Shown in pieces: positions 14,001 through 54,754 of a DNA stretch of 64,000 bases. The DNA comes from Eledone cirrhosa. Its lineage: Eukaryota. The stretch spans positions 151,838,001-151,902,000 of the forward strand of contig OZ024742.1 of the NCBI GenBank assembly GCA_964016885.1, written 5' to 3'. The first letter of the stretch is position 1. Each line of letters opens with the position of its first letter. A program made the position numbers and the translations under genes. Below the pieces are notes generated by a model, which was not told the DNA's origin, searched no databases, and saw nothing but the letters and a program-made list of their open reading frames with translations.

Positions 14001-14159
14001 GATGGAAACCGCGGAGTGGGGAGACCCAAGATGACTTGGGATGAGGTGATAAAAGCCGACCTTACCCAACTACACCTCTCAAAGTCAATGACACACGACC
14101 GTGACTTCTGGCCTCACGCAGTAATACAGGGTACCCGACCTCCCATGGGTACATGCTGA
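11040..14159 (+). pseudogene. APE-RT polyprotein with one nonsense codon (11985-11987) and a PHD-like finger inserted in the RT
   Basis: GTINVGS, QETRW, GDFNGH, LDFIL; NYRGIKL, FVDLEKAFDRV, QGSVLSP, YADD, FCYLG; both ORFs are in the same frame. Confidence 0.9.
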
Positions 14160-21629: not shown

Positions 21630-22909
21630 CAAAAGTTCTATTTAAAATTGTTGGGATACAACAAGTAAATATTTTATAACTGATATAAAGCACTCGACAA
21701 GTTTTTGGAGTAGATATACGATATTAAATATCGTGATGACATGCTTTTACTTATAGAAAATAATAGCTGTGAACTAAATAGAAAAAGAAAACAAATTATA
21801 CAATTTTTTAATTACCTTAATCTAAAAATAGAAATAGAGAATAACCATAGAATAGTCAATTTTCTGGATGTAACACTAAATCTCAACACATGTCTTCATT
21901 ATCCATTTCACAAACTAAATGAGAACTTGAATTATGTCAATTTTAACTCTAATCACCCCAGATCTGTTAAAAATACTATAGTGAACTCTGTTCAAGAACG
22001 AATTTCAAGAATTTCATCTAATAAAAATATTTTTGATGAAAAAGCGCAGTATTACAATGAAGCGTTAGCTAGAGCAGGATATAGAGATAAAATTAAATAC
22101 ATCGATAATAATAATAAGCAAACTAACCAAAATAATAACAATTTTAATTACGGTAACAACTTTAACAACTATAATAGAAAACATTACAATAATTCCAAAA
22201 GCCGAAAAAGAAATAGAACTAGAAATATATTATGGTTTGCCCCCCCCCCCCCCCCTTCTCACTAAATATTAAAACCCATATTGCTAAACTATTCTTTAAT
22301 GCTCTTAACAAACGCTTCCCTAGAACACATAAATATCACTCAATTTTTAATAGACACACTATAAAATTAACTTACTCGTCCACCAAAAATTTAGCACAAA
22401 ATATTAACAGAATTAATAATAGGAATTTAAAACCTAACCAAAATACCAATAATAACCAAAACAATATTCAATTAAATAACTGTAACTGTAGAAATAAATC
22501 TAACTGTCCGTTAAATAACAACTGCCTAGCTAAAAATGTAGTGTACAATTGTAATGTTAAAACTAATTTAAATTCTTTCAACTATGTTGGTTCCACCTCG
22601 ACAGAATTTAAACTTCGCTTCAATAATCATAAGAATTCTTTCACAGATCCAAACCAAAAATCCTCAACTTCGCTATCTAGCTTACTCTGGCACCTTAAAC
22701 GAGATAATATTAAATATTCGATGATTTGGAATATTGTCTCAAAAGGTACTCCTTTTAATTCCTCTTCAGAAAGTTGTGATCTTTGTATAGAAGAAATATT
22801 CTTTATGTTAAAGTCCAAAAATTCCCTTAATTTAAGGAGCAATTTATTCAGTTGCTGCAGACATAGATTGAACTCAACGTTTAAATATAAATATAAATTT
22901 AAAATGTAG
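21630..22909 (+). pseudogene. PLE RT C-terminus plus GIY-YIG
   Basis: ORFs 21741-22265 and 22232-22909. Confidence 0.85.
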
Positions 22910-24592: not shown

Positions 24593-27092
24593 CTGTTTAG
24601 ACTGTCGGAGAAATGGGCCAACGCTGGCTGCCAAATTATTTTCCTGAAACGCTGTCTAAAAAACGATGTCATCCCCAACACCATCAAGAACATCCGCTTA
24701 CCAGTAAGCCTACGTACACCAGCCTTCCAAAACACCACTAACCGCATACATCGCAGTGTATTAAACAGATCCTGAGACATCTCAACCGCCAATTACACGT
24801 CCATAAGCGGACACATCGACTGCCAATAGCACCCGGAGACTTGCTCCTAAAAATCACTAAAGCTATCGACCAGTGCTACCACTCCAGAGTCCAATACGAG
24901 AAAAAACAGCTCAAGCGAAAATATGAGTGGATCTTGTCGAAACGCCACAACGAGAACATCGACACTAACGAACAGACGGACCAGAACCACGTGGAAAACA
25001 ACAACTTAACAACTGCCACCGCCGCAACCACCAACACCGAGCCATACCTCAACGATGCGACGCACCTGGTCACCGACCTAACCGGCACTCTCACGAGCGA
25101 CGAGCTGAAACTCCTACACCTCGGACCTAAGTTCATCGTCACACAACGTCTCGACGACAGACTCAAACTCAACATCGAGCCCAACTTTTGTCGAGCCGCT
25201 TACCAAATTAAATGGGTGACCGCTATCAACAGCGCCGACACAACCCACCCCAAGTTCCCCACTTACCACCCCCACCCACCAACCACGACCTCGACACTAA
25301 ACTCATCAGGCTAAAACACTCCATCTCGGATATACTTCACAAACACAAACACACACGCACAACACATAACCTCACCAAATCTCAACTCACCACTCTCTCC
25401 AACCTAAAATCGAAGAACCTAATCTATCTCCCCTCCGACAAGGGAAAAGAATTCTGCGTCATCAGCAGAGAGGCCTACAACACCCTGACCCTCCAACACC
25501 TTGACGATGACAACCTCTACTCCAAGGTCACGGGAATCACTCCCGCGCAGATAGAAGAACACATCAACTCCGCCTGGACCAACATCTGCGACCGGCGGAA
25601 GCTCCCGAAGAAGCTGAGATACAACCTCCTCACGAGGAACAGCAGACTATCCGCCTTCTACCACCTCGTGAAAACACACAAACAGGGACGCGACCTGAAA
25701 ATCAGGCCCGTCGTATCGAGCGTGGTGGGACCACTCTACAAAATGTCATGGCTCCTAGCCAGAATACTCAAACCCATCTTAGACACCTTGCCGGGACACG
25801 TTAACAGCTCCGAGGAGGTGTTGAAGCGCCTGCATCAAATGGATCCCGACACCAGAAGGAATAACAGATATGCCTTCAGCCTTGATGTAGTCGCTCTCTA
25901 CACCTCGGTCCCGGCACTCCCGGCCGTCAATATACTAATGGAACGCGTCCAATCCACCGACCTACACTGCTTCGGGCTCACCACCACTGACATCCACCAA
26001 CTCCTATCCATCGTCATCGACAACACCTACTTCGGATTACTTGACCAAATATACCAACAAACCTCGGGATTGCCCATGGGATCAAGCCTATCAGGTGTGC
26101 TAGCGATCTCCTACATGGACAACCTCGAACGCAAGGCACTCAACGCCTGCTACCCCAAGGCCGTAGCCTTTTTCTCAAGATACGTGGACGATATCCTCAT
26201 CCTCACATCTTGCCAAGACACGGCGAACAGAATCTATGAGACGTTCAACAACACGGACGAGAACATTGACTTCAGTGTTGAACACCCCAACGAAGACGGG
26301 TCACTTGCCCTCCTCGACTTCCGAATCAACATCATGGAACAAGGAGGGATCCACTGCAACTTCTACAGAAAGGCAGCCCGCAGGGACCTATTCGTTCACT
26401 ACAAGTCCGCCCTCCCTAACAGTGCCAAAAGAGGATACATCGCGAACGAGATCGCGCGAATCAAAAACAGATGCAGCGATCCCGCGAGTGGTGTCACTCA
26501 TACCAAGCGATTCCTCGAGGTGCTGGAGACGAACGGGTACCCTAACTCGATCACAGACAGAATAGGAGACACCAGACGCAAGAGACAGAGAAGCACCCAA
26601 GGCAAGTGCTTCCTTAAAATGCCACACCTGGGCGAGAAAACCACCAACGCTATCCGCAAGGCTATACGGAGGGAAGGACACGACATCCACCTGGCCCACT
26701 CGGGCCCCTCCCTGCGAAGATGCCTCTCCAGGAAACCCGAAAAATCTACTGACGCATGCTCCTTCAGAGACTGCCTGATACGCCATGCTAACTGTTGCCT
26801 ACGCACATACGTCGTGTATGAGATAGAATGGGACAGGTGCAACCAATACTACATAGGTAGCACAATTCGACCTTTGCACAACCGGATCAAGGAACACACT
26901 AAAACCAGGGCCTCGTCTTTCCGGAAACACATAGACAAATGCGGAAAGAAAGACGGAAGGCCCATTGTCACAATTCTAGCGACTGAAAGAAACGTCGGCA
27001 CGTTACGTATCAGGGAAGCGCTTTTTATCAAACGACTGCAACCGCAAATAAACAACCGATCAGAGAGAAGCGAAATGAAATGGCTGGTTTAA
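24591..27092 (+). pseudogene. RT-GIY-YIG polyprotein with at least 2 frameshifts
   Basis: Segments at 24593-about 24830, 24841-about 25270 and about 25270-27092. Confidence 0.85.
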
Positions 27093-30874: not shown

Positions 30875-33800
30875 TTAACGGGAATTCACATATTGTGCCA
30901 ACTTGGCGGGCCAATGGACGCGTCGTCCACTTCTCGTGACTGGAGATGAAACAGGTGGCTCACTGGGACAGCAATCTGTTGGAGTTTCTGGTGTAGAGAC
31001 TGTAACAGTATCCATGATGGCTTTTTTTAATCTGTTCACGCTGACAGAATTCTGTTTACCATCTAGATCGAGAATAAAACATTTCGGATATTTTTTTAGA
31101 ACACGATAAGGACCAGAATATGGAGGTCGAAGATGAGCTGAAATGGTGTCGTTTCGAACGAAAACGTGTGTCCAATCTTTAATGTCTGAAGGTACGTGTG
31201 TGGCCGTGTTCTGTTGACGGGTGCTTGCAGGAGCAAGGTGAGACATATAGTGTCGAAGACGGTGTACGTATGATCCTGGGTCTGGAACATCCTGAGGAGA
31301 GATGGGAGCAACCATCTGACCAGGTAGATCCAGGGTGGTGCCGTACACTAATTCTGCAGGTGTGTGTCCGAATTCCTCCTTAACGGTGGATCGAATGCCC
31401 AGAAGGACGAGTGGTAAGTATTCAAACCAGTGGGTCTTGTCTGGATATGCTTTTATTGCAGCTTTCAATTGGCGATGGAATCTTTCCACGAGACCATTAG
31501 CTTGCGGGTGATAAGCTGTCGTGCGGATGTGTTTACATCCTAACAGGCGAGTCAGTTCCCTGAAGAGGTGGGAGTCAAATTGGCGTCCTCTGTCCGTTGT
31601 TATCTTCGCTGGGGCGCCATAACGTGATACCCAGTGTAAAACCAAAGTTTTAGCGATTGTTCCCGCTGCGGTATCATTTATGGGAAAAGCCTCAGGCCAA
31701 CGAGAAAATCGATCTATGCAGGTGAGCAAGTGTGTGTAGTTCTGTGATGGTGGTAGAGGTCCGACGATGTCGATATCCACATGATGAAAACATGCATCAG
31801 GTTGCGCGAATGTGCCGAGTGGAGTTTTGATGTGACTGTGGAATTTGGCTTTCTGGCAGGCAATGCAGCTCCTGGACCAGTCGCGCACGTCCTTGTTAAT
31901 GTTAGTCCACACAAAACGAGCAGAGATGAGTTTCTGTGTAGCCCGGATTACCGGGTGAGACAAGCAGTGTAAAGCAGAAAAAACTTGTCGACGATCCATC
32001 TGTGGTACGTACGGTCGTTCATGACCGGTAGAAAAGTCGCACCAAATTTGTCCCCGGGAAGAAGGAATGGAAACTTGCTGAAACTTGAGGGATGGCGAAT
32101 CTCAGAGCTTGATAAACTCTTCGTCAGTCTCTTGGTCAGCTGCGATCTGTTGAAGGTCGATGCCTGAATGCACATGTATTGAGTTCAGCTGTATTCGGGA
32201 CAGGGCATCGGCTGCTACGTTGTCTGATCCCTTGATATGCCGAATATCAGTTGAATATTGGGAGACAAAATCCAGGTGTCGGAATTCTCTCGGTGAATAA
32301 CGGTTAGGATTGGTACGGAACGCATAAACTAGTGGTTTATGGTCCGTGTAGATCACGAAATCTGATCATTCGAGCATGTGCCGAAAATGCTTAACCGAAA
32401 GATAGGTTGCCAAGAGTTCGCGGCCAAAGGTACTGCATTTCGTTTCTGCCGGTTGCAACCGCTTAGAAAAGAAGGATAAGGGCTGCCACACGCCGTCGAC
32501 ATGTTGTAAAACGCCTCCAACCCCCGTGTCTGATGCGCCAACTAGCAGCGAAAGAGGAACGCCAGACCTGGGGAAAACAAGCATGGAAGCGTTTGCCAAT
32601 ATTTCCTTCAGGCGGTTAAAAGATGTTAATTCTTCCTCGTTTAGAGTGATCTCTTCGTTTTTGCGAGTCCGGTTACGAAGAAGGTCCGTGAGGAGTCTGG
32701 CTGCGTCGGAACAATGAGGGATAAAACGCCTATAAAAATTCACCAGAGCGAGGAATTCACGCAGTTTCCGAAGTGATGTAGGTGCGGGAAAACTGCGGAT
32801 AGCTTCTACTTTCTCGGGAAGTGGACGAATGCCGTCTTTATCGATGATGTGCCCAAGAAAGGACAGTGAAGGAACGCCGAGAAGGCACTTGCTGGGGTTG
32901 TTGATGATACCGTACTCAGCCAAACGTTGGAAAAGGAGATCTAAGTGCTTCTCGTGTTCTTGCTCGGAAGTACTTGCTACCAGCACGTCGTCAATATACG
33001 CGTATACGAAGGGTAGATCGCGTAACACGGTGTCAATAAACCGCTAAAAAGTTTGTTCAGCGTTGCGCAGACCGAACGGCATTCGTAGGAATTCGAATAA
33101 ACCGAACGGCGTTGTGATTGCGGTCTTCGGAATATCTGCAGGCTCCATAGGTAAGGTATCTGGTTGTATGCACGCACCAAATCTATCTTGGAAAAGGTGC
33201 GTGCGCCTTGCAGAGAGGCAGAAAAATCGTGCAGGTGAGGTACAGGGTAATTATCGGGCACTGTAGAGCTGTTAAGTGAACGATAATCCCCACATGGTCG
33301 CCAATCATTCTCGTTTTTTTAGGAACAAGTTGTAGAGGTGCAGACCAGTTGCTGGAGGAAGGGCGAATGATTCCGAGGTCCAGCATGTGTTGGAACTCCT
33401 GCTTGGCGATTCTCAATCGGTCTGGAGGCAGTCTCCTTGGTCGGGCAGCTGTGGGTGGTCCCCTTGTCTCGATGTGGTGCGTGACACTATGCTTAATGGG
33501 ACCATCCTTAAATACCGGGCGAGTGATGTCTGGGTATTTCTGGAGAATGCCGTTGTACCGCGAAGGCTCTGACTGGCAAATTACGGGGCTCACTGTGGAT
33601 TGCCTGGTAAATATACCTCTCACAGTGAGGTTTGTGGTGGTGTCGATAAGCCTCCGGTTCTTCATATCCACCAGAAGGTTGAAGTGGTGGAGAAAATCGG
33701 CTCCTAGGATAGGGGTCAGCAAGTCTGCCACGACGAACACCTATTGATTGTGGGTCAGTAATTTTTCCCCGAAAGTCGGAATTGACGATCGGTTCACTGC

Positions 33801-34994: not shown

Positions 34995-35585
34995 GCATAT
35001 ATATATGTATGCATATGTTTCGATTTATTTGCGCGTATATGTATGTTGTATACATATGTGTATATATATATATTTTTTGAGAATTTTTTGAATATTTAAA
35101 AATATATTTTCTCATACGTCTTTTTATATACATGTTTGTCTGTACATAGGTATATATTTATATATATGTAAGCACCTGCGTAGGTATATTTAGTATGTAT
35201 ATATGTGTACGGACATTTATATGCATGTATGTATATTTATGTATTTGTGCGTACATATATAACTCTATACACATGTATATTTCATCGACCACTTCATTCT
35301 GCCAATCACACAACATTTTCCATACACCCCTATACAACCACCTTCACACTCATCACCTACTTCCCAGTGACCAATTAAAATTTTATGGCTATGTCCATTA
35401 TCGCCCATTAACTTCTTCACACAACCTAATCCTTCCTTCCACCCCATCTTAATCACCCCTCCTCAATTAAATCTCCCCCACCTCGATTCTTCTTTTATTT
35501 ATACTGTGTCTTGTATTCAAACACTAGTTCCTGTCTGGTGACCCTTCGGTATTAAGTACTCTTTTCTCTCAGCCGTGACCCGCAT

Positions 35586-35648
<63 letters not shown>

Positions 35649-35667
35649 TATATAGATATATATGCAC

Positions 35668-35713
<46 letters not shown>

Positions 35714-35778
35714 GTATGCATATATATATATATATGCATATATATATATATATATGTATGCATATATATATATATATA

Positions 35779-35893
<115 letters not shown>

Positions 35894-36032
35894 AGTGTAA
35901 TTTTCTACACAAAACGAAGGTTATAGAGAAAATTGAGGTTGGTAATGGCACATGGAATATATAAGAGACAGAATACTTTTTTGTGAAAAAACATAATTTT
36001 ATAAGGTAAGGAAATAATAAAGGGTATAAAAA

Positions 36033-36074
36033 ATGACCGGTTTCGATGGGTCTGCAAAAGCCATCTTTTCAAAT
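36033..36074 (-). ncRNA. HHR, U3-A8 variant
   Basis: Inverted copy of 37817-37858. Confidence 0.65.
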
Positions 36075-36349
36075 GTTGATTAATATTAAGAAAAATTAAT
36101 AATACGAAGAGTTAAAATTTGAGACTTGAAAATTCAAGTATAAAATTCATTGTGGGATTTCATAGCAGTTTTCATCTAGGTAGCAACAACAGGTTGACTG
36201 CTGTGTCCCTTTCTGGTAGTGAATGAGAAGTTATTTGGGGTGTGGGTTATTTTATAAAGGTCAGATTTAGCAATAGCCAGCTGCTGGTCAGTGAGGGGGT
36301 GGAAGCAATATACACACACATACCTTCATCCACACATACACACACATAC

Positions 36350-36398
<49 letters not shown>

Positions 36399-36467
36399 CA
36401 CACATACATACACACACACATACATATACATACACACATACACACACACACACATATATATACACAT

Positions 36468-36522
<55 letters not shown>

Positions 36523-36553
36523 TATATATACATACACATACATCCAGATACAC

Positions 36554-36634
<81 letters not shown>

Positions 36635-37229
36635 AATTTAACAAATTTAAACCAAAACTAAACGGGTTATCACCCCAATAGAATTGTCATAAAATATAAA
36701 CACACATACGCACGGAATCACTACTATTAAAGACCAGAGACCAATTCTGTAGAATCAGGTTTATTCATTGACAGACCATGCCTTTGTGTGACCAACACAT
36801 CCATGTTAAACCCTGCACGTGCACACACGTATATCTATATATATATGCGCACACAGAATTATTTTAATTTCACTGCCCCAACTTCTTATATTATGGAAAA
36901 AATATGTCTGTATGTATATATATGTATATATATTTGAAGGCCATTTCTCTGTGTGTGGGTGTATGTATGTGTGTGTGTGTGTGTGTGAGTATGTGTGTGC
37001 ATGTGGATGTATGTATTGTGTGTACGTGTGTGTGTGTGTGTGTGTGTATGTATGTGGGTATCTGGATGTATGCGTATGTGTATATATATATATATATGCA
37101 TGTGTGTGTGTGTGTGTGTGTATATATATGTGTGTGTATGTGTGTATATATATGTGTGTGTGTGTGTGTGTGTATGTTTGTATGTGTGTATGTGTATATA
37201 TATATGTGTGTGTGTATGTATGTGTGGGG

Positions 37230-37323
<94 letters not shown>

Positions 37324-37354
37324 GTGTATCTGGATGTATGTGTATGTATATATA

Positions 37355-37409
<55 letters not shown>

Positions 37410-37494
37410 ATGTGTATATATATGTGTGTGTGTGTGTATGTGTGTATGTATATGTATGTGTGTGTGTATGTATGTGTGTGTGTATGTATGTGTG

Positions 37495-37541
<47 letters not shown>

Positions 37542-37816
37542 GTATGTGTGTGTATGTGTGGATGAAGGTATGTGTGTGTATATTGCTTCCACCCCCTCAC
37601 TGACCAGCAGCTGGCTATTGCTAAATCTGACCTTTATAAAATAACCCACACCCCAAATAACTTCTCATTCACTACCAGAAAGGGACACAGCAGTCAACCT
37701 GTTGTTGCTACCTAGATGAAAACTGCTATGAAATCCCACAATGAATTTTATACTTGAATTTTCAAGTCTCAAATTTTAACTCTTCGTATTATTAATTTTT
37801 CTTAATATTAATCAAC

Positions 37817-37858
37817 ATTTGAAAAGATGGCTTTTGCAGACCCATCGAAACCGGTCAT
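37817..37858 (+). ncRNA. HHR, U3-A8 variant
   Basis: at-TTGAAAA-gatgg..ccatc-GAAA-ccgg-TC-at. Confidence 0.7.
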
Positions 37859-38030
37859 TTTTTATACCCTTTATTATTTCCTTACCTTATAAAATTATGT
37901 TTTTTCACAAAAAAGTATTCTGTCTCTTATATATTCCATGTGCCATTACCAACCTCAATTTTCTCTATAACCTTCGTTTTGTGTAGAAAATTACACTTTT
38001 CATATATACTAACCTACGCAAATCCGGAAA

Positions 38031-39296
38031 ATGGCACTGGAACAAGACAACACCACTTCAAACTCCAATATCAATGAGGAAATCCTGAAAATCCTAAAAG
38101 AGATAAATGGAAAACTCACCATTCTGACAAAAAAACAGGATATACCCCAAACCACCACACCGACTGACAACCAAATTTATTTAAACGTTCAAAACGTATG
38201 CAACTCCATCGAAAAACTTATGAATACCAACACAGAACAAACGACATTGCTCCATATCAAAAACCAAATGGGACACCTCTGGAAAAAACATCTAAAAACC
38301 AGAAAATTCACTTTCTGGAATATGATAAAAAACCTCAACAAAGCTGGAATTTACCAAAAATGGATTAACTCAACACCGATAGTTTTACCACGTAAATTCC
38401 AAATAAAGCATATTACAAACGAACCTGAACCAGAAAGAAAACTCCGTGAACAAATGTCACTCAACAGGATAAACATGGAAATAGAACTCCTAAAATTAAG
38501 GGCCACCTCAAACGAGCAAGAGTATAAGGATACTGATAAAAATATGGAGGAAGAATGCACTAAAAAGGCCGAGGGAACAACCCTACAAAATTTAATCAAA
38601 TCGTGGAAACAGGACTGCGAGAATGCAGAAACTATTTCCCTTAAACGGTGGGAAAAATCCGAAAACTGGTTCCTCAAATATGAAGATGACTTTAAAAGGA
38701 CGCACCAAACAGGTAACCCCTTTATAAAGCATTTGAACATAACAAGAACTACAACAGACACATTTACACCACCAAACCCAACACACACTAACCACAGGCA
38801 CATCCCCCACCAACACAAACCAAATACGGCCAACTACACCAAAAGAAACACACCCAACCACCACAACACAGGTTTCCGTAGAAATGCCCCCTACATAAAC
38901 CAACGACGAAATAACATAGATCCAACTCACAACACACACACCACATTCCTCAGAAGAAATCCACCCAGGCCACTTGAAATCACAACAGAACTTACCCACA
39001 ACCACACCAGACATCACCCTCAATCCAACAAAAGACAACCCCCCAGCCTCAACACTCTGTACCACAGAAATAACGCACCCAGACCACATGAACCAACAAC
39101 AGAACCCTTGCTCATCAACAACCACAACACATACCACCCCCACCATCACATTCACCCTCATGAAACAACAAGCTACAGACCCACACGCAACAGACCAACA
39201 AAATATAATCACACACAAAACTACATTCCTTTTTTAGGGAAAAGCCTGAAATACCAGGATACTCGATGGCCCCCCCTCAGGAGAAACCAAAAATAA
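38031..39296 (+). CDS. PLE ORF1, 421 aa; helical/coiled-coil-like N-terminal half and basic H/N/T/P/R-rich C-terminus
   Basis: Uninterrupted ATG-started ORF just downstream of the pLTR; overlaps ORF2. Confidence 0.8.
   Translation: MALEQDNTTSNSNINEEILKILKEINGKLTILTKKQDIPQTTTPTDNQIYLNVQNVCNSIEKLMNTNTEQTTLLHIKNQMGHLWKKHLKTRKFTFWNMIKNLNKAGIYQKWINSTPIVLPRKFQIKHITNEPEPERKLREQMSLNRINMEIELLKLRATSNEQEYKDTDKNMEEECTKKAEGTTLQNLIKSWKQDCENAETISLKRWEKSENWFLKYEDDFKRTHQTGNPFIKHLNITRTTTDTFTPPNPTHTNHRHIPHQHKPNTANYTKRNTPNHHNTGFRRNAPYINQRRNNIDPTHNTHTTFLRRNPPRPLEITTELTHNHTRHHPQSNKRQPPSLNTLYHRNNAPRPHEPTTEPLLINNHNTYHPHHHIHPHETTSYRPTRNRPTKYNHTQNYIPFLGKSLKYQDTRWPPLRRNQK
39230..39281 (+). promoter_or_regulatory. Candidate -1 programmed ribosomal frameshift signal
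   Basis: T TTT TTA heptamer in ORF1 register, 8-nt spacer, then stem cctga..tcagg. Confidence 0.7.
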
Positions 39297-41542
39297 TCAA
39301 CCTCTCAAAGACACCTCTAACCAACACACAAATCAACATTTTAAGTAAGGGCCTGAAATTTACACCTACACCACGTAAACCAAACTTCCCCGAAATGAAG
39401 GATGACATCATGGAATACTGCCGAAAGCTGCGACTAACGGAATTCTTCCACAACGACACCAACACTGAAGACGAATCACTGGTTAGAAATAAAAGCAATT
39501 TCTGCCCACAAAAGGGAAGAAATAAAGCACTGGACACGTACTGCGAACACATCACCAACTTTCCCTATGAAACAATTACAAATAAACACACGAAATCAAA
39601 CCTATCTACACACGAATGGGAAGAATTATTCACACTTAGAAACAACCCTGAGATAACTATCAAAGAAGCCGATAAAGGCAGTACTGTTGTGATTATGAAT
39701 ACGGACTACTATAGGACCCTCGCACTTAACATTTTAGAAAACAACACATACTATGAAAAAACAGAAAACTACAAACACACCAAAACAATGGGGAACCTTT
39801 TGACCTTACTGAATAAATACCGCAACAGCTTAACCACAAAAGAGTTTAACTATATAAGCCACTTCAAATGCAATACAAGCTCTTTTTACGGCTTACCGAA
39901 ACTTCACAAATGTAAACCCATAAACGATGCATGTGACACCTCAACCAACAATTACATTGAACTAACACCACCAGAAGACCTAAAACTCAGGCCAATTATA
40001 GCAGGCCCTACATGTGAAACCCACAGACTTAGCAACTTTCTGGACATCCTACTGAAACCCTTTCTACAACATATACAGAGCTACATACGAGATGACCTTG
40101 ACATGCTGAAACACCTCCCTAAAACAGTAAGTGCAAATACAATTCTTGTCTCCTTTGACGTAATAAACCTCTACACAAACATACCCCACAACTATGGAAT
40201 AACAGCAGTCCAATACTGGCTTAACACACACCCATCAGAAATACCGACACGCATCAACACAGATTTTATCACTGACGGACTCCGCTTTATCCTACAAAAT
40301 AACTACTTCACGTTCAATGGTTCAACATACAGACAAGTATCAGGTACGGCAATGGGCACGAAAGTAGCACCCACATATGCCAACCTAGTCATGGGATTCC
40401 ATGAACAACAAATATACAGTCAGTCCCTTCTCTTATTTGGAGACTCTTTCCACACACACCTCAAAGCCAATTGGAAAAGATATCTAGACGACTGCTTTAT
40501 CCTATGGCAAGAAGACATGAACTCACTTACTACGTTTAAAAACATGATAAACAACATAGATAATAACATACAATTCACAATGGAATCCAATCCTAAGGAA
40601 TTAGCCTTCTTGGATATTCTCATCTCTGTAATAGACGGGAAATTAGATACAGATATATTCTATAAACCCACAGATTCCAAGCAATACCTCTTTTTCACAT
40701 CAAGTCACCCAAAACATACAAAACTTAACATTCCTTACAATTTGGCCAAACGTATATGTACCATAGTATCAGATCCACCTAAACGGGAGCAAAGACTAAA
40801 GGAACTAAAAGACACCCTTATCTTAAGAGCCTTTCCACTTGAAATAATCAACAATGGAATAGACAGGGCAAAACACCTAAATCCCCATCAACTTAACAAT
40901 CCAAAACAGAAAACCACACTCAACACCCTGCCATATGTATCCACTTTCAACCCCAGAAATACCGAAATGTTTGATCACCTACACAAAAACCTCCCCATCC
41001 TACTTAAAGATGTAAAAATGAAGTCTATTCTTGAAACACACAAGATCCTTAAAAGTAAAAGACAACCCAAATCACTTAAACGCATTCTCACTGGACCAAA
41101 TATACCCAAACCAATCCTCAACCCTACAGTTACCAAATGTGGTAGAACAAACTGTGGAACGTGCCTCTACCTCACTGAAGGACAAACATTTACATTCAAA
41201 GATGGCCAAACATTTACAGTAAAAAACAATTTCACCTGCAACTCGGAGAACTTGATTTACGCAATAACTTGCGGTGGGTGCAAACACAACTACATAGGAC
41301 AGACGGGCACCTCATTACGCAAAAGAATGACCATCCACCGCCAACAAATCCGGGACGCTAACACAAGAAAAATCCCCTTGAGCAGCCATATTGCGAACTG
41401 CGCAGGAATGACACTACCCAACTTTAAAATCTTCCCCTTCTACAAGTGCTCAGATTCGTTCACACAACAACAAAGAATAAACAAAGAAAATCTATTCCTT
41501 AACAAATTTAAACCAAAACTAAACGGGTTATCACCCCAATAG
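39266..41542 (+). CDS. Neptune RT, Cys linker and GIY-YIG endonuclease (758 aa; possibly made as an ORF1 fusion)
   Basis: IINLS, LSKGLKFTPTP, ADKG, LRPII, FDVINLYTNIP, GTAMGTKVAP, YLDD, CGRTNCGTC, LIYAITC..YIGQT, LN. Confidence 0.93.
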   Translation: MAPPQEKPKIINLSKTPLTNTQINILSKGLKFTPTPRKPNFPEMKDDIMEYCRKLRLTEFFHNDTNTEDESLVRNKSNFCPQKGRNKALDTYCEHITNFPYETITNKHTKSNLSTHEWEELFTLRNNPEITIKEADKGSTVVIMNTDYYRTLALNILENNTYYEKTENYKHTKTMGNLLTLLNKYRNSLTTKEFNYISHFKCNTSSFYGLPKLHKCKPINDACDTSTNNYIELTPPEDLKLRPIIAGPTCETHRLSNFLDILLKPFLQHIQSYIRDDLDMLKHLPKTVSANTILVSFDVINLYTNIPHNYGITAVQYWLNTHPSEIPTRINTDFITDGLRFILQNNYFTFNGSTYRQVSGTAMGTKVAPTYANLVMGFHEQQIYSQSLLLFGDSFHTHLKANWKRYLDDCFILWQEDMNSLTTFKNMINNIDNNIQFTMESNPKELAFLDILISVIDGKLDTDIFYKPTDSKQYLFFTSSHPKHTKLNIPYNLAKRICTIVSDPPKREQRLKELKDTLILRAFPLEIINNGIDRAKHLNPHQLNNPKQKTTLNTLPYVSTFNPRNTEMFDHLHKNLPILLKDVKMKSILETHKILKSKRQPKSLKRILTGPNIPKPILNPTVTKCGRTNCGTCLYLTEGQTFTFKDGQTFTVKNNFTCNSENLIYAITCGGCKHNYIGQTGTSLRKRMTIHRQQIRDANTRKIPLSSHIANCAGMTLPNFKIFPFYKCSDSFTQQQRINKENLFLNKFKPKLNGLSPQ

Positions 41543-42141
41543 AATTGTCATAAAATATAAACACACATACGCACGGAATCACTACTATTAAAGACCAGAG
41601 ACCAATTCTGTAGAATCAGGTTTATTCATTGACAGACCATGCCTTTGTGTGACCAACACATCCATGTTAAACCCTGCACGTGCACACACGTATATCTATA
41701 TATATATGCGCACACAGAATTATTTTAATTTCACTGCCCCAACTTCTTATATTATGGAAAAAATATGTCTGTATGTATATATATGTATATATATTTGAAG
41801 GCCATTTCTCTGTGTGTGGGTGTATGTATGTGTGTGTGTGTGTGAGTATGTGTGTGCATGTGGATGTATGTATTGTGTGTGCGTGTGTGTGTGTGTGTGT
41901 GTGTATGTATGTGGGTATCTGGATGTATGCGTATGTGTATATGTATATATATATGCATGTGTGTGTGTGTGTGTGTGTATATATATGTGTGTGTATGTGT
42001 GTATATATATGTGTGTGTGTGTGTGTGTATGTTTGTATGTGTGTATGTATATATATATGTGTGTGTGTATGTATGTGTGGGGGTGTGTGTGTGTGTGTGT
42101 GTATGTATGTGTGTATCTGGATGTATGTGTATGTATATATA

Positions 42142-42196
<55 letters not shown>

Positions 42197-42590
42197 ATGT
42201 GTATATATATGTGTGTGTGTGTGTATGTGTGTATGTATATGTATGTGTGTGTGTATGTATGTGTGTATATGTATATATATATATATATTATATATATATA
42301 TATATATATGTATATGTATGTGTGTGTATGTGTGGATGAAGGTATGTGTGTGTATATTGCTTCCACCCCCTCACTGACCAGCAGCTGGCTATTGCTAAAT
42401 CTGACCTTTATAAAATAACCCACACCCCAAATAACTTCTCATTCACTACCAGAAAGGGACACAGCAGTCAACCTGTTGTTGCTACCTAGATGAAAACTGC
42501 TATGAAATCCCACAATGAATTTTATACTTGAATTTTCAAGTCTCAAATTTTAACTCTTCGTATTATTAATTTTTCTTAATATTAATCAAC

Positions 42591-42632
42591 ATTTGAAAAG
42601 ATGGCTTTTGCAGACCCATCGAAACCGGTCAT
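42591..42632 (+). ncRNA. HHR, U3-A8 variant
   Basis: Same motif as 37817-37858. Confidence 0.7.
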
Positions 42633-42739
42633 TTTTTATACCCTTTATTATTTCCTTACCTTATAAAATTATGTTTTTTCACAAAAAAGTATTCTGTCTC
42701 TTATATATTCCATGTGCCATTACCAACCTCAATTTTCTC

Positions 42740-42770
<31 letters not shown>

Positions 42771-42771
42771 T

Positions 42772-43732
42772 TATATATAAATGAAAGGTATAGAAAATAT
42801 TGTAGCAAAAAGCCAACAGTATTCAATAATATAAGTGACTATAGCGTCAAAATGGGAAAAATAGTTAACGTAAGATGTGGGAAAAACAATTCAAGCTCAA
42901 CTCAAAAAGAATCAGGATATAGATTCATCCAACAGAATTTAGTGAAATCCAGGGAAAAATCAATAGACCCTTAACTCATGATAAAATAAAGTTTAAAATA
43001 CTCAGCCTTCAATCTGGAAAAACTTCAAATGCTCTGTATAGTCTTGAAGACTATTTCACAAAAACTTTCAGTGGAGATGATGACGGTTGAAACCGATCCT
43101 CAGCAGAGCTCAACTCGATAACCAAAATTTCTCACTGATTAATATGCCAAAAAGGGAATTTAAAAGCAGGCTAGTTCACCATCATGCGTGATTATGAAAA
43201 TAAAACGCACATATGGAAAGACAGGGCTGGTGACGTCAGAATGAGACGAATGTTTGTTTACAAGAAACAACAGTCAAAAACATATCGAAAAAACTCTACA
43301 ATAAGGAGTTCAGCAAAAAGTAATATTATCGCGGTTTTTTCATATAAAAATACCGGGATTAGTCACAAATAATTTAAGCACTCTAGGAAAGAAATCCGAG
43401 TATATATAAATGAAAGGTATAGAACATATTGTAGCAAAAGCCAACAGTATTCCATAATATATAAGTGACTATAGCGTCAAAATGGGAAAATAGTTAACGT
43501 AAGATGTGGGAAAAATAATTCAAACTCAACTCAAAAAGAATCAAGATATAGATTCATCCAACAGAATTTAGTGAAATCCAGGGAAAAATCAATAGAGCCT
43601 TAACTCATGATAAAATAAAGTTTAAAATGTACATCCTTCAATTTGTAAAACTTTAAATGCTCTGTATAGTCCTGAAGACTATTTCACGAAAACTTTCAGT
43701 GGAGATGGTCACCGTTGGAAGTCGATCCTCAT
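42772..43732. repeat. Non-coding tandem unit of about 630 bp (about 1.5 copies)
   Basis: tatataaatgaaaggtatagaa...gatcctca at about 42772-43101 and 43402-43731. Confidence 0.8.
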
Positions 43733-45069: not shown

Positions 45070-45124
<55 letters not shown>

Positions 45125-45409
45125 CAAATAACGAAACGAAATTAAATTTCGTTTCGCTTCTAACTCACTTTTGTATGACTGACGCTTAAACAATTAAGTT
45201 AAAGTGTACATCTACATATGTATACGGAAGTATTAGTATGCATATAAATACACACATGTATACATATGTACATGTACTCAGCTTTTCACTAGACACTTTA
45301 CAGTGAGTGTCAGCTAGTCTGTATGTAACCACACAGACGGACCGGGTTTTAGAGTCATACGGGTTTTCAAGGAAACACATTTCCTCTATTCTCCAGAGGG
45401 CCAGACAGG

Positions 45410-45454
45410 AATATTGGACTAGTTTCGATGTTATTACATCTCATCAGCAATATT
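45410..45454 (-). ncRNA. Canonical minimal type I HHR
   Basis: Reverse complement of 46083-46127. Confidence 0.9.
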
Positions 45455-46082
45455 TACCCATCTTCCGGCTTCTCTTGAGAATTGTAAAAGCACATATCGT
45501 TATATGCTTTTTCTATGAAAATTATTAGTGGGTAGACTAATTTGCATAGAACGTGAGTCATTGTACGCACCGGTTCAGCGGAAACGATAAAAACAAATAA
45601 CGAAACGAAATTAAATTTCGTTTCGCTTCTAACTCACTTTTGTATGACTGACGCTTAAACTGTCTGGCCCTCTGGAGAATAGAGGAAATGTGTTTCCTTG
45701 AAAACCCGTATGACTCTAAAACCCGGTCCGTCTGTGTGGTTACATACAGACTAGCTGACACTCACTGTAAAGTGTCTAGTGAAAAGCTGAGTACATGTAC
45801 ATATGTATACATGTGTCTATTTATATGCATACTAATACTTCCGTATACATATGTAGATGTACACTTTAACTTAATTGTTTAAGCGTCAGTCATACAAAAG
45901 TGAGTTAGAAGCGAAACGAAATTTAATTTCGTTTCGTTATTTGTTTTTATCGTTTCCGCTGAACCGGTGCGTACAATGACTCACGTTCTATGCAAATTAG
46001 TCTACCCACTACTAATTTTCATAGAAAAAGCATATAACGATATGTGCTTTTACAATTCTCCAGAGAAGCCAGAAGATGGGTA

Positions 46083-46127
46083 AATATTGCTGATGAGATG
46101 TAATAACATCGAAACTAGTCCAATATT
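46083..46127 (+). ncRNA. Canonical minimal type I HHR
   Basis: aatattg-CTGATGA-gatgt aata acatc-GAAA-ctag-TC-caatatt. Confidence 0.92.
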
Positions 46128-46373
46128 CCTGTCTGGCCCTCTGGAGAATAGAGGAAATGTGTTTCCTTGAAAACCCGTATGACTCTAAAACCCGGTCCGT
46201 CTGTGTGGTTACATACAGACTAGCTGACACTCACTGTAAAGTGTCTAGTGAAAAGCTGAGTACATGTACATATGTATACATGTGTGTATTTATATGCATA
46301 CTAATACTTCCGTATACATATGTAGATGTACACTTTAACTTAATTATATATATATACATACACATATATATAT

Positions 46374-46404
<31 letters not shown>

Positions 46405-46759
46405 CATACACATATATACATATACATACAAAAATTAATAAAAATAAACTATAGCTTTGTAGAATTAGCTTTTAATGAATTCCTTTTCTATCAACCAATG
46501 ACCTACACCCATCCCACTCCCCACCCTCTCCTACCACTTGTAGAGACCTATAAAAACCATATTTATTTTTTGATACCCAGATTCCTGATGATTTCTAAAG
46601 AATGAAACAGTTCTAGTCCTGTAGAATCTCATCTATATTAACACTTTTATACTCTGCAATGTATTGAGTACCTTACTTACTGTGTTTACCTCCGATTCAA
46701 CCCGGAATAACGAACTTTTTAGCACTCTCTGTGCCCCTTATAACCATCATCAAGAAACC

Positions 46760-48908
46760 ATGCTGACCAAACTCGACCTTGATATTTCCTTGAAGAACAT
46801 CCCTATCCCTCCAAGGAAACTATACTTAAAAACACTCATCAGACGTACCGACGAGTTCATCAAGCGAATTAGATGGAGGGCCTTCTTCCTCGACAACCCT
46901 GATGTAGCATCTACCAATGATGAAAAGTTCGGCTTCAAAACGAATAAGACACCACCCACCAACAGCCTACTCCAACCATTTGAAGAAGACCTCTTCAAGA
47001 TGATCAAGGATATTAAATTCCGTAGAGCCACCACACCATTCCAGGCCTACTTAAATGCCGAATTACGGAATATAAAAAAATCCCCTAATCTTTATGTCTC
47101 CTCCGATAAAACCAAAAACGTTTATGAGGTAGACCCACAGACCTACAATAAGCTGGCAAAAAATACCATCACGACCACCTACAAAAAGGTAATAGAGAGG
47201 GCACTGACTGAGACAAACGCGGCCGGAAAAGAAATCGCCAAGTCCCTTAAATTACACGACCGAACCGAACCTTTAAGGGTAAAGACCCCGCACTTTACCC
47301 TGAAGGACCATAAGGGAAACTTCCTCAACAAACCATCAGTCAGACTTATCAACCCCACTCGTTCTGACATCGGCTCTATCAGTAAGAAGATCCTGGATAG
47401 AGTTCTACCATCATTGCGGGCAGCCTCACCACTTCCACTCTGGAGCAGAACATCTGAGGCAATATCATGGTTCCAAAAATTACCCGACAAACACCACACT
47501 CGCTTCCTGCAACTCGACATAGAAAACTACTATGCCTCTATCTCGGAGCCCCTCCTGAAGGACGCAATTAACTGTGCCAGGAATTTTACCACCATTACCG
47601 ATGCTAAGCAAGTTGTTATCCTCCACGCTCGTAAGACCTTTCTATACCACGATGGATCTTACTGGATCAACAAGAAATCTCAGACCCCATTTGACGGAAG
47701 CATGGGGGCGAGTGACTCGGCTGAAATTAGCGACCTTGTGGGCCTATACATCCTACATCACCTGAAGAACCTCTTTACCGGCCTAACGGGAGGTTTATAC
47801 CGAGACGACGGCCTCTTCGCCCTGCATAAGGTTAACCCCAGAACCACCGATGGGTTTCGGAAAAACTTAAGCTCTTTCTTCTCTAATCTAGGATTTAGTA
47901 TAACTATAGAATCTAATTTGACTAGGGCCAACTTCTTAGATGTCACTCTCGACCTAGATACTTCCCTCTATTACCCGTACCACAAACCTAACGAACGAGT
48001 CCCTTAAATATATTAATGTTAATTCAAACCACCCCCAAAACAACACTGATAACCTAGTAAAAAGCGTCTCTATTAGAATATCTGGCCTCTCCGCCAACAA
48101 AGATATTTTTAATGCATCTGCCTCTTACTACAATGACGCCCTCGCCCGTAGCGGATTTAAAGATAAGATAACTTACCTAGAAACCACCGCAAGATTGCAG
48201 AGGAGGAATAGACATAGGCAGATTAGCTGGTACAACCCTCCATTCAATAGAGAGGTATCTACTCCGATAGCTAGGATTTTCTTCACTTTGCTGAAATTAC
48301 ACTTCCCCATACAACATAGGTACCACACCATCTTTAATAAGAACACAATAAGACTGTCTTACTCCACCACACCTAACCTAGCTAGGAATATAGCCAACCA
48401 CAATTCTAAAAAATTAAATAAGCCAACCACCTCCGAACCCAATCCCCGGACTGGGGCTCTATGTAATTGCCTAAATAAGGAAGCATGCCCACTTGAAAAC
48501 AAATGCCTCACAAATGATATCGTATACAAATGCGATGTCATCTCAGGCACCGAGGATTGCAAAAAAACTTATATCGGCATGACCTCCAACAACTTTAAGA
48601 CCCGTTGGTATGCCCATACCCACTCCTTCAGGGGACCGGACAAATAAAATCAGACAACACTCGCCTCCTACGTTTGGGACCTCAAAAGGAACTCCACCCC
48701 CTTCACGCGTAAATGGAAAATACTCCAGAAAGCGCGCTCTTACAACGGAGGATACAAGGGCTGCGACCTTTGTATTTCAGAGAGCTACGAAATTTTATTC
48801 GCCAAGGGCCCGCTACTGAACAAACTCTCTGAACACTGCCCGAACTGCATGCACAAGAACTTTGCAACTTTCAAACACTTTAAGCCAGTGTTAAAGCCCG
48901 ATGGCTAA
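46760..48908 (+). pseudogene. Naiad RT-GIY-YIG with a frameshift (about 48000) and a TAA stop (48645)
   Basis: SLKNIPIP, FIKRIRWRAFF, FGFK, SDKT, RLINP, DIENYY, MGASDSAE, YRDDG, FLDV, CNC..CPL, IVYKC..YIG. Confidence 0.9.
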
Positions 48909-50822: not shown

Positions 50823-51125
50823 GCGCGGGGACATAGAAATAATCGGGCTGGATGCCCGATCGCGCAGTTAAACCACTGGGAGTGAAGAACCCCTAGCCCA
50901 TGTCAGGGTATTCTTCTAGGAGAAGGCATCTCAGGAAACTGGGTTAACTCCGATATAAAACCTGCGGCTCAGTAGTTACCGATGATGTTGATCTTTTCTT
51001 CTTTTCGGGTTATAGCTACTGTCGCTCAGAGAGTGGGATTGGTTCAGTGCACAGTCTTTCCTCACTTTAAAAATATTCGTCACGCACAGGCATTGCACGA
51101 GTGCATTAATAATTATTAATAGTGT

Positions 51126-51160
<35 letters not shown>

Positions 51161-54100
51161 TATTATTACTTTTTTTTTTTTTTTTTTTTTTTCCAATTCA
51201 ATGATGTTCCAGAACAATGTAAACGAGATAATTGCCAATTTGGGTTCTGGAACAAAAAAGATCATTGGCAATAAGGGCAGGGGCCCCAAGTTATCACAAC
51301 CTGGGCCCGCCCGTCATCGTGCCATTGTAATAGAGCCAAACAGGGCATTTAGTCTTGGCTGCTGGAACGTACGGACGCTGCTTGACAGGGATTCTTTGGA
51401 GCGTCCTGAACGAAGGACCGCTCTTGTTGCGAAGGAGCTTCGACGTTACGATCTTGACATCGTGGCTTTGTCTGAGACGAGGTTAGCTGGAGATGGTCAT
51501 CTTACGGAATTTTGTGGAGAATATACATTCTTCTGGAAAGGAAGAGATGAAGGAACCAGAAGAGAGGCTGGGGTAGGATTTGCTGTTAAGACTGTACTGG
51601 TGAATAAATTAGAAGAATTCCCAGTGGGGATTAGTGAGCGTCTTATGTCCATGAGAGTTCCGCTGGACAAGGGAAGATATGCTACCCTGGTGAGTGTGTA
51701 TGCTCCAACTATGAATTCTGTCGATGAAGAAAAACTGTCCTTTTACCATGCCTTGAAAGGTGTTTTAAGAAATATCCCTCAGGCAGACAAAGTCATCGTG
51801 CTTGGTGACTTTAATGCTAGAGTGGGTAGGGATTTTAACACATGGAATGTAATCGGAAGGCATGGGGTGGGAAAGTGTAACAGCAATGGTATGCTCTTGC
51901 TGCAGATGTGTGAGGAGCTGGATCTGTGTGTTACCAACACCATGTTCCAACAAAAGAACAAATTCAAGACCACATGGATGCATCCTGCATCTAAGGAATG
52001 GCATCTTTTGGACTACGTCCTAGTCAGGATGCGTGACAGACAGGATGTGCGGTGTGTTCGTGTTCTTCGTGGAGCTGAGTGCTGGACGGACCACCGCCTG
52101 GTACGCGCAAAAGTGAATCTAATCACCAAACGTAAAATCCGGGCTCCTGGTGTTACCCTGCCCAAAAGATTGAATGCTGCTCGTCTTAAGGATAAAAATG
52201 TGAAGAGGACATTGGAAGAAGAGATGCAGGCTGCAGATCTTGGTGAGGATTGGCCGACCCTTAAAAAGTCGGTTTATGATGTAGGCAGACGTGTTCTGGG
52301 ATTGGTGCAGAGAAAACATCAGGACTGGTTTAATGAGAAAGATGTGCATATAGATGACTTGTTGGCTGATAAGAGGCGCGCTCTGTCACGCTACTTGACG
52401 GCAAGACCACAGGAGAGGAATACGTTGCATGAGGAGCTCAGGGATGTAAAATCACGTGTTAGGCGGAGTCTTTCTCAGATGAAGGATCAGTGGTGGAGTG
52501 AGAAGGCTGGTGAGATACAAACTGCGTCTGATTGCAATAACACAAAGCTGTTGTACAGTCTCTTGCGTGAGGTTTATGGACCGTCTTCTTCTCTGGTGAC
52601 ACCGATTCGCAGCAAGGATGGCAAAGAACTTCTTCGTGACTCACAGGGAATTCTACGAAGGTGGCGAGAGCACTTTGATGATCTTTTGAATCAGCCGTCT
52701 GTCGTCGGTGAAGATTTCCTCAATCTCATTCCGGAAAGTCCTGTGAAAGTAGCTCTCGCAGAGCCTCCGACACTTGTGGAGGTTGCAGTGGCTATTTCGA
52801 AGCTGAACAGTGGAAGATCTCCAGGTATGGATGGCATACATGCTGAGCTCCTACAATATGGTGGTGAGAGACTCCTGCAACATCTTCACTCTCTGTTTGG
52901 AAGGATATGGGCTAATGAATCCGTGCCTGAGGACTGGAGAGATGCAGTAATGGTGGTCTTGTACAAGGGAAAGGGTAACAGGAATGATTGTGGGAACTAC
53001 AGAGGTATATCATTGCTTTCTGTCGTGGGGAAAGTTTTATGTAGGGTGCTTCTGGACCGTCTGCTGACACACATTGCAGATTGTGTCCTTCCTGAAAGTC
53101 AATCTGGTTTTCGTGTTGGACGCGGCACTACTGATATGATCTTCTCAGCTAGACAGCTCCAGGAGAAGTGCATTGAACAGGGCTTGGATCTGTATCAGGT
53201 TTTTGTCGATCTGACAAAGGCTTTCGATACTGTCAACAGAGATGCATTATGGAAGGTTCTCCAGAAACTTGGTTGCCCTGATAAGTTCCTTGCTTTAGTT
53301 AGGTCTTTCCATGACGACATGAAGGCTTGGGTTAATGTCGGAGGTAACATGTCGGAGCCTATCTCAGTAAAAAATGGAGTGAAACAGGGGGATATTCCAG
53401 CACCGACCCTGTTTGCCATATACTTTGCAATGGTTTTCTGTATTGCATTCAGGAATTGCGAGCATGGTGTTTACATCCGATATCGAACCTCAGGCAGCAT
53501 ATTTAACATCAGGCGCTTTGCTGCGAAGACAAAAGTATTTACATCAGTCATAAGAGACCTCTTGTATGCAGATGATTGCGATCTTGTAGCGCACACAGAG
53601 AGTGATATGCAGCACATTTTGAATGTATTTTCTGACGCTTGCACTGCCCTGGGTTTGACTGTCAGTCTCAAGAAAACCGTCGTCATGTACCAACCTGCAC
53701 CTGGTAGGCAGTACACTGAACCAAACATCTATGTGTATGGCAAACGACTTGGAGTGGTTGATCAGTTTGTCTACCTGGGAAGCACTGTCAATCGATACGG
53801 CAACCTTGACAGTGAAATCTCACTTAGGATTAGGAAAGCAAGTGATGCTTTCGGAAAGCTAGAAAGGCGACTCTGGGGTCGGCGAGACATATGCAGGAGG
53901 ACAAAGGTAAGGGTGTACAGGGCATGTGTACTCTCTTGTCTTCTTTATGCCTGCGAGACCTGGGTCACATATCGACGCCACCTTAAGCAATTGGAGCGTT
54001 TCCATCAGATGTGTCTCAGACGGATACATGGCGTTCACTGGAGGGACCACATCAGTGATGTCGAGATTTTGGAAAGCTCTATGTGTGACAGTATAGAAGC

Positions 54101-54754
54101 TCTTGTGCTTAAGCAGCGACTCCGTTGGAGTGGTCACCTTGCCAGGATGAAGGATTCTAGAATACCAAAACAACTCTTCTATGGAGAGTTGGTTAAAGGA
54201 AAACGACCGCCACATAAACCAAAAAAGAGGTATAAGGATTCCTTGAAGGCCTCTCTGAAAGACGCTAACATCTCTGCTGATACATGGGAAAATATTGCTG
54301 CTGATCGTAATAAATGGAGAAAGACTGTATATGAGGGAAAAGTTGCCTTTGAGGCATCTCGAATCGCACACGAGAAAGTAAAGCGGGACGTGAGGAAGGG
54401 TATTGCTGTTGCACTTCCAGACGGCGAGGGTCCTCCTATGTTTCTGACATGCAGCGTCTGTGCGAGACTCTGCCTAAGCAAAGCTGGACTCGAAAGTCAT
54501 CTTCGCAGTCATAAAGTAAGACCAGTGGTTGACTACCAGGCTGCTGTTGGAGATGCTACTCATCATGCTTGCCAAACATGTGGTAGAGAATGTAAATCAG
54601 CAGGAGGACTCAAGCGACATGCAAAAGTACACGAACTCCAACCACAGCCGACTATTCCCAGTAAATGTTTTGGTTGCCGACTCTGTGCAAGACATTTTGG
54701 ATCATTGGCTGGGCTAAAAAGCCACATTCGATCGCAGCACTGTTAGTTGCTATC

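Follow-up and report, generated by a model that had tools for sequence, protein, structure and literature searches.

A two-ORF Neptune-type Penelope-like retrotransposon of Eledone cirrhosa with a probable programmed −1 frameshift at a conserved U UUU UUA heptamer

Penelope-like retrotransposons (PLEs) that carry an endonuclease (EN+ PLEs) are canonically single-open reading frame (ORF) elements, as the abstract of Craig et al. 2021 (PMC8557442) has it, and the Fig. 1 legend of that paper, in which CC stands for coiled coil, mentions for an unnamed clade a PLE ORF1 separable by a frameshift with a pseudoknot. Other upstream ORFs have been reported as well. In the excerpted descriptions, the killifish Neptune element repeat.CL27 has an upstream ORF1 of 420 nucleotides (nt) that does not overlap its reverse transcriptase-endonuclease (RT-EN) ORF (PMC12602865), esterase-bearing Neptune-like PLEs are mentioned (PMC5408684), and a gag-like zinc-knuckle ORF1 is given for Chara Chlamys (PMC8557442 supplement). 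For human immunodeficiency virus type 1 (HIV-1), an excerpt gives the gag-pol slippery site as UUUUUA (PMC12086091). Here, we analyzed a 64,000-nt stretch of the Eledone cirrhosa genome (assembly GCA_964016885.1, contig OZ024742.1, positions 151,838,001 to 151,902,000; hereafter the window, in whose coordinates all positions are given) that contains a Neptune-type PLE with two overlapping ORFs. Judged from the conserved sequence of the junction, programmed −1 ribosomal frameshifting at a U UUU UUA heptamer probably yields an ORF1-RT-EN fusion alongside free ORF1.

The element and its slip site

The coding part of the element and the features around its junction are as follows, families B and C being relatives of the window family (family A).

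38031..39296, plus strand: ORF1, 421 amino acids (aa), from ATG 38031 to TAA 39294-39296
39206..39208, plus strand: TAA at which the −1 frame is closed, 7 codons upstream of the slip site
39230..39236, plus strand: slippery heptamer T TTT TTA, of the form X XXY YYZ in the ORF1 register, followed by G
39209..41542 (stop to stop), plus strand: ORF2, 777 aa, −1 frame, RT-endonuclease
Within ORF2, plus strand: N-terminal IINLS...KGLKFTPTP and RT with LYTNI, GTAMG and, at 40481, YLDD
C-terminal part of ORF2, plus strand: CX4CXXC linker finger at 41138-41164 and GIY-YIG endonuclease with CCHH from 41252
39245..39281, plus strand: hairpin proposed earlier, present but weak and unconserved
39266..39268, plus strand: first ATG of ORF2; family B has GTG here, and family C and six outside loci lack it
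39270..39276, plus strand: C7 run, which expands in inserted copies and is the origin of fused single-ORF copies
39294..39296, plus strand: ORF1 stop TAA, 19 codons past the slip-site Leu codon

The coordinates of both ORFs, their −1 offset, the TAA at 39206 and the position of the heptamer, all put forward in an initial annotation of this DNA, match the sequence, and positions 39228-39242 read CCT TTT TTA GGG AAA in the ORF1 register. A −1 shift at the heptamer gives a predicted fusion of 1170 aa with the junction YIPFL/REKPEIPGYSM, in agreement with the approximate size expected earlier. As at programmed −1 frameshift sites, an X XXY YYZ heptamer lies in the register of the upstream ORF and the downstream ORF is in the −1 frame, and both heptamer and offset are conserved in evolution. 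Mechanistically, tRNA-Phe and tRNA-Leu would slip in tandem, as at the HIV-1 gag-pol site; ORF1 made in excess would act as an oligomeric RNA-binding protein of a ribonucleoprotein particle (RNP), like the ORF1p of long interspersed nuclear elements (LINEs) or Gag in role, and the fusion would deliver the enzyme into this ORF1 RNP. The heptamer alone may give a low shift rate.

ORF2 has a Pfam match to RVT_1 and contains the GIY-YIG motifs LIY..C..C...YIGQT and H..H, and the linker finger between RT and EN (CGRTNCGTC at 41138) is of the type common to Neptune and Nematis. Compared by eye with the rows in Figs. S1 and S2 of Craig et al. 2021, the RT motifs LYTNI.H..G..A..YWL and GTAMG...APTYAN and the long finger-to-GIY segment resemble Neptune rather than Nematis, in line with the earlier designation of ORF2 as a Neptune-type RT-endonuclease. 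Further hallmarks of EN+ PLEs are the PLE-type RT, the C-terminal GIY-YIG with CCHH, and pseudo-long terminal repeats (pLTRs) from partial tandem/inverted insertion; (TA)n tracts flank the element at both ends. The canonical single ORF is replaced by two ORFs at 183 of 190 junctions in the genome. Since printed exceptions to the single-ORF form exist, we treat the two-ORF layout as a variant within EN+ PLEs and not as grounds for exclusion. The frameshifted ORF1-RT PLEs of the Fig. 1 legend are reportedly the endonuclease-lacking Athena/Terminon elements; here, an endonuclease is present and copies are dispersed over many contigs. The 30 best-matching loci, picked for likeness, are 98.7-100% identical to the window, and the family is thus young. 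On sequence grounds, the window holds an intact copy of this young Neptune-type PLE, which is present in high copy number.

Conservation of the junction and competing explanations

The exact 29-mer of the junction was found 183 times in the E. cirrhosa genome, and 190 times when any 3-12 nt were allowed to replace the T run, with 0 matches to the reversed pattern. Because there are 183 exact genomic copies, the T6 junction is neither a sequencing slip nor a mutation of a single copy. Six of the 7 variant junctions are listed and comprise 5 substitutions and 1 T5; hence, at most 1 of 190 junctions has T7, and the continuous ORF that a seventh T would create, named in the initial annotation as an outcome contrary to its proposal, is not the state of the family. 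The same counts bear on the idea that RNA polymerase II (or RT) stutters on T6 and inserts an extra U, so that a minority of mRNAs would be fused with no slippage by the ribosome. Such stutter would make the same product, and homopolymers of this element can be unstable, as the C7 run is. Yet stutter needs no codon register, whereas the run keeps to the X XXY YYZ register, and it stays T6 in the inserted copies even though these have been copied through RNA. We consider polymerase stutter highly improbable.

The C7 run behaves differently. In the first 100 of 172 matches spanning it, the length of the segment was unchanged in 47 copies and changed in 53, of which 19 fused ORF1 and ORF2 and 21 and 13 did not, with no frame preference. 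A search with ORF1 also recovered copies with a single open frame of ~1170 aa, three of which (L061, L062, and L063) are fully open; the fused copies examined, from among 20 long-frame loci, owe their fusion to added C-run bases (+1, +4, +7, +10, +13, and +16), not to the T run. Such copies could be taken to mean that the active element is the fused single-ORF form, the two-ORF copies being defective passengers. However, the fusions arise from many C-run lengths, and copies with a changed C run are more diverged (median of 8.2 versus 3.9 substitutions/kb in 21 versus 18 copies, P = 0.007; 39 of the first 40 listed copies). No variant shared by at least 3 of these 39 copies groups the +1 copies (pairwise sharing is unlisted). 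Moreover, the older subfamily lacks the C7 run, and the distant families are two-ORF. Given the absence of frame bias, the higher divergence, and the lack of a variant grouping the +1 copies, the fused copies are best read, as far as sequences can tell, as decay after insertion, and a single-ORF active form is extremely improbable. The C7 run is very unstable after insertion, with changes of up to +21 that usually remove the G immediately 5′; the T6 run, at a distance of 35 nt, hardly varies. Short-read contigs also show a loose poly-C end, and a fused family C copy (L104) is likewise due to +1 C. Contigs of three sequencing runs that align to the element were not taken as support for the junction, as the source sample may be among them and the single contig that spans the junction carries a gap.

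Heptamer and −1 offset are also conserved outside the young copies, as the initial annotation's reading would require. Both are intact in 9 of 11 copies of an older subfamily in the same genome (one has T7 and one is mutated), in 12/12 copies of family B, and in 9/9 copies of family C; families A, B, and C are mutually 36-45% identical in ORF1 and 56-58% identical in ORF2. Six outside loci, from metagenomes and contaminants of metagenome-assembled genomes (MAGs), have the heptamer in register, 5 as T TTT TTA and 1 as T TTT TTG; these were located with the ORF2 alignment, the ORF1 alignment being too divergent for seeding locus scans. An in-frame TTTTTT(A/G) preceded the RT N-terminal motif in 6/6 placements (5 loci) with a match to the ORF1 domain versus 1/59 placements without one, many of the 59 being near-duplicates; the single exception, L122, has an upstream ORF truncated by the contig end.

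At the protein level, a search of 50%-identity clusters gave 520 relatives of the ORF1 domain at E ≤ 0.001, of which the best 150, one per cluster and all of at most 546 aa, were analyzed. Phe-Leu (FL), the translation of the slip heptamer, occurs in the last 45 residues of 64 of the 77 relatives with at least 330 aa, compared to 2 and 4 of 77 in equal upstream control windows. Furthermore, the residue before FL is never Q, E, K, M, or W, whose codons cannot end in T (0/64 versus a background of 21%). The best 120 of 874 ORF2 relatives are 633-803 aa long, and none is fused, in a search that admitted up to 1344 aa; ORF2 relatives carry PF01541, named GIY-YIG by the sources. No relative was found in a scan of viral contigs. 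At the place equivalent to FL, ORF1 relatives P0051, P0064, P0148, P0012, and P0144 have F-R or F-P, hinting at other heptamers. Some close ORF2 relatives come from bivalve-symbiont assemblies, and animal PLEs annotated as bacterial GIY-YIG are present in bacterial MAG and symbiont assemblies (L195-L241 on GTDB MAG contigs; P0164, P0194, P0197, P0206, P0252, and P0265); these are likely host contamination.

If ORF2 were translated separately from ATG 39266, by leaky scanning, by reinitiation, or from an internal promoter, the heptamer would be idle. The 758-aa protein so made would hold all conserved motifs, and this ATG is kept in the older subfamily. Nonetheless, the codon, which the initial annotation had singled out as a possible independent start, is unconserved, as family B reads GTG and neither family C nor the six outside loci have it. 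At all 10 DNA junctions, the −1 frame opens just 0-22 codons upstream of the heptamer, and at 8 of them the first ORF2 Met lies downstream of the conserved IINLS motif. Called starts are scattered among the best 120 ORF2 relatives, ATGA stop-start overlaps occur at 0/10 junctions, and separate initiation leaves the conserved heptamer unexplained; we regard it as very unlikely.

The best rival, because PLEs have introns and a G often follows the site, takes TTTTTTAG as a 3′ splice acceptor, with ORF2 expressed from a spliced RNA (donor at 37568 or inside ORF1) and Phe-Leu as a by-product. Spliceosomal introns are reported for PLEs in the excerpted text of PMC8557442, and a pyrimidine tract with AG is present at 9/10 DNA junctions. 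A donor-like site lies at 37568, and G follows FL in 42/64 proteins, compared to a background of 19%. On the other hand, in 22/64 relatives the residue after FL cannot begin with G, and L195 reads TTTTTTGT, without AG. The register is always T TTT TTA, although an acceptor needs no fixed position in the ORF1 frame. If splicing started from the untranslated region (UTR), 8/10 families would lack an ATG before the conserved motif, and the sole donor-like match to a simple pattern in 36638-39300 lies in the UTR. Taken together, a splice acceptor at this site appears quite unlikely.

A stimulator was also sought. Both pairings proposed in the initial annotation, cctga/tcagg and cctg-aaatac-cagg, exist as written, but neither is supported as a stimulatory stem: the region folds at −8.5 kcal/mol (z = +0.82), 165 of 200 shuffles fold equally well, and both versions shrink to 3 bp in the older subfamily without compensation. 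The fold z score of the window junction is about +0.8 to +1.0, no stimulatory stem-loop or pseudoknot was found there 5-9 nt downstream of the heptamer, and an Rfam scan of 35500-43000 returned no frameshift element, only sub-threshold, microsatellite-driven microRNA look-alikes.

Several observations weigh against programmed frameshifting. U UUU UUA lacking a stimulator shifts weakly. Among the 10 junctions, only L122 (z = −4.1) and L125 (z = −3.1) have hairpins better than shuffles, and a strict H-type pseudoknot scan found none at 9 junctions and a chance-level one at the tenth. The terminal FL is missing from 13/77 long ORF1 relatives, the enrichment of G after the heptamer is something that a splice acceptor would also need, and in the window family the conserved ORF2 motif does have an ATG before it. 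Fused copies make up 19/100 of those listed and, because three are fully open, could supply the enzyme without a shift. In addition, the relatives are phylogenetically linked, so that counts overstate independence. Even so, the conserved register, the late-opening −1 frame, the absence of an early Met at 8 of 10 junctions, and the unfused ORF2 relatives favor a programmed −1 shift over separate initiation or polymerase stutter.

Slip-to-stop spacing

In 24 of the 64 FL-bearing relatives, exactly 10 unconserved codons separate the Leu codon from the ORF1 stop, and none of the 64 has fewer; at a stop frequency of 0.076 per codon in the ORF1 frame, more than half of randomly placed stops would lie nearer. 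This trait was clustered on a quickly built tree of 72 rows, with 19/22 occurrences inside one 30-row group that includes the window element, and required 10 changes versus 19 when shuffled. Because of this clustering, the 10-codon gap would mostly reflect a single ancestral state retained along long branches rather than 24 separate origins. At the DNA junctions, the gap is 19 codons in the window family, 20 in family B, 10 in family C, 19 in L195, 12 in L121 and L129, 17 in L122, and 1 in L125. ATGA stop-start coupling, considered because of the 12-residue tail, was rejected, as the 10 junctions show no such overlap.

A eukaryotic ribosome covers about one codon more than a bacterial one. It is conceivable, though doubtful, that this PLE lineage shifts to −1 without RNA structure, the roadblock being a ribosome that terminates at the ORF1 stop and with which the trailing ribosome collides over U UUU UUA. 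The trailing ribosome would slip into the RT frame, and enzyme output would scale with ribosome load on ORF1; the 10-codon gap would be the one-ribosome form, and the gaps of 19 and 20 codons in the window family and family B would be the two-ribosome form. In Escherichia coli reporters, as excerpted from Smith et al. 2019 (PMC6815119), −1 shifting on a structure-free heptad peaked with 9 codons to a slow stop and was caused by trailing-ribosome collision. Four points speak against the collision model. The 19-codon gap of the window family corresponds at best to a two-ribosome queue, no second peak at two-ribosome spacing is present in the 64 relatives (0 at tail length 21 and 2 at 22), most ORF1 stops are TAA, and the same 10-codon pattern would result if the C-terminal peptide of ORF1 were constrained in length. 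A literature search, whose coverage excluded most subscription journals, returned no description of natural stop-collision frameshifting in eukaryotes.

ORF1, flanking sequence, and relation to known systems

ORF1 comprises an N-terminal predicted coiled coil (~aa 15-100), a conserved predicted helical domain (~aa 60-236), and a basic, N/T/H/P/R-rich low-complexity tail that ends in F-L plus 19 residues. PDB matches to the first 100 residues are to generic coiled coils; no other PDB match, and none to Gag, was obtained. A CCHC knuckle (CX2CX4HX4C) is absent from the 77 long relatives and from the window ORF1, and Pfam returned no consistent family and no Gag match for the same sequences. A homology search with full-length ORF1 gave one match, and an ESM Atlas search gave no usable one. 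The label "gag-like" in the initial annotation thus fails as a statement of homology and would hold only as an analogy of role. The ORF1 profile matches neither the N-terminal extensions of 38 single-ORF PLE placements nor ORF2; ORF1 is therefore not shown to be the usual PLE N terminus split off.

The element extends on both sides of the ORFs as follows.

35883..36640, minus strand: inverted partial copy of the element's 5′ UTR/pLTR, the reverse complement of 37243-38008, with a (TA)n tract at its start
36638..38008, plus strand: 5′ pLTR, a partial tandem copy matching 41499-42743, with the last ~45 nt of ORF2 and 3′/5′ UTR containing an internal (TG)n/(TA)n tract
37568..37986, plus strand: possible 5′ UTR intron (predicted), with donor-like AAG/GTATGT at 37568 and a pyrimidine tract plus TAG ending at 37986
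41499..42743, plus strand: 3′ pLTR, ending in a (TA)n tract

The predicted intron acceptor (37986) lies 45 nt 5′ of the ORF1 ATG, with TACTAAC just downstream (38006-38012); the intron would span the pLTR boundary, as in Penelope, and has no obvious counterpart in families B and C. No hammerhead ribozyme was matched by Rfam at E ≤ 1 in 35500-43000, and the pLTR contains no canonical CTGANGA..GAAA core; hammerhead motifs are frequent in the pLTRs of EN+ PLEs but not universal. Directly after the 3′ pLTR is a two-copy repeat of ~629 nt (42850-43657), and a 469-nt repeat with a long inverted arm (45118-46350) adjoins PLE-like ORFs at 46625-48647. The latter and 22223-22909 are PLE-like remnants without Pfam matches, and another PLE piece, a 626-aa RT plus GIY-YIG ORF, occupies 25212-27092. 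The window also contains an open 1207-aa apurinic/apyrimidinic endonuclease-RT LINE ORF with a C-terminal C2H2 finger (51123-54746, plus strand), a LINE RT whose RT domain is followed by an inserted PHD finger (11037-14159, plus strand), and, by eye, gypsy-like RT/integrase remnants (30875-33043, minus strand).

EN+ PLEs have so far been described, and studied biochemically, as single-ORF polyproteins. A large lineage, of 520 ORF1 clusters at the threshold above, instead has a separate ORF1 that is undescribed, and would set the ratio of ORF1 to RT-endonuclease in the manner of retroviruses. Gene models that begin at the first ATG would give these enzymes a wrong N terminus, which matters for reconstituting PLE retrotransposition. 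Furthermore, the missing stimulator and the fixed slip-to-stop distance provide a natural series (gaps of 1, 10, 12, 17, 19, and 20 codons, with and without hairpins) suited to testing stop-codon ribosome collisions as a driver of frameshifting in eukaryotes.

With the Neptune group, as excerpted in PMC8557442, the window element has in common tandem/inverted pLTRs, RT, a CX2-5CXXC finger, C-terminal GIY-YIG with CCHH, and (TA)n flanks; it differs in the separate 421-aa ORF1 without a Pfam family, ORF2 in the −1 frame, and the lack of a canonical hammerhead core. The frameshifted ORF1-RT PLEs of the legend in that paper likewise connect a coiled-coil ORF1 and a PLE RT through a frameshift; unlike these, the window element has an endonuclease and a genome-wide spread, and no pseudoknot or conserved stem was found. 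A frameshifted ORF1 in PLEs is hence already in print, and as the clade is unnamed, the legend may already cover Neptune; for a slippery-site frameshift in an EN+ PLE, literature searches, limited as above, returned no description. The killifish Neptune, the esterase-bearing PLEs, and Chara Chlamys also have an extra ORF upstream of RT-EN, and the excerpts describing them include no frameshift signal. The bacterial collision reporters (PMC6815119, as excerpted) resemble this junction in having a slippery heptad upstream of a stop and no RNA structure, with a 9-codon peak there versus 10 codons in 24/64 relatives here; they are engineered and use a slow UGA, whereas the element here is natural and eukaryotic, most stops are TAA, and the gap in the window family is 19 codons. 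Finally, HIV-1 gag-pol has a strong downstream stem-loop where none is seen here, ORF1 is not Gag, and no protease is present to release the enzyme; with it, however, the window element shares an identical heptamer followed by GGG and the placement of a structural-type ORF before the enzyme ORF.

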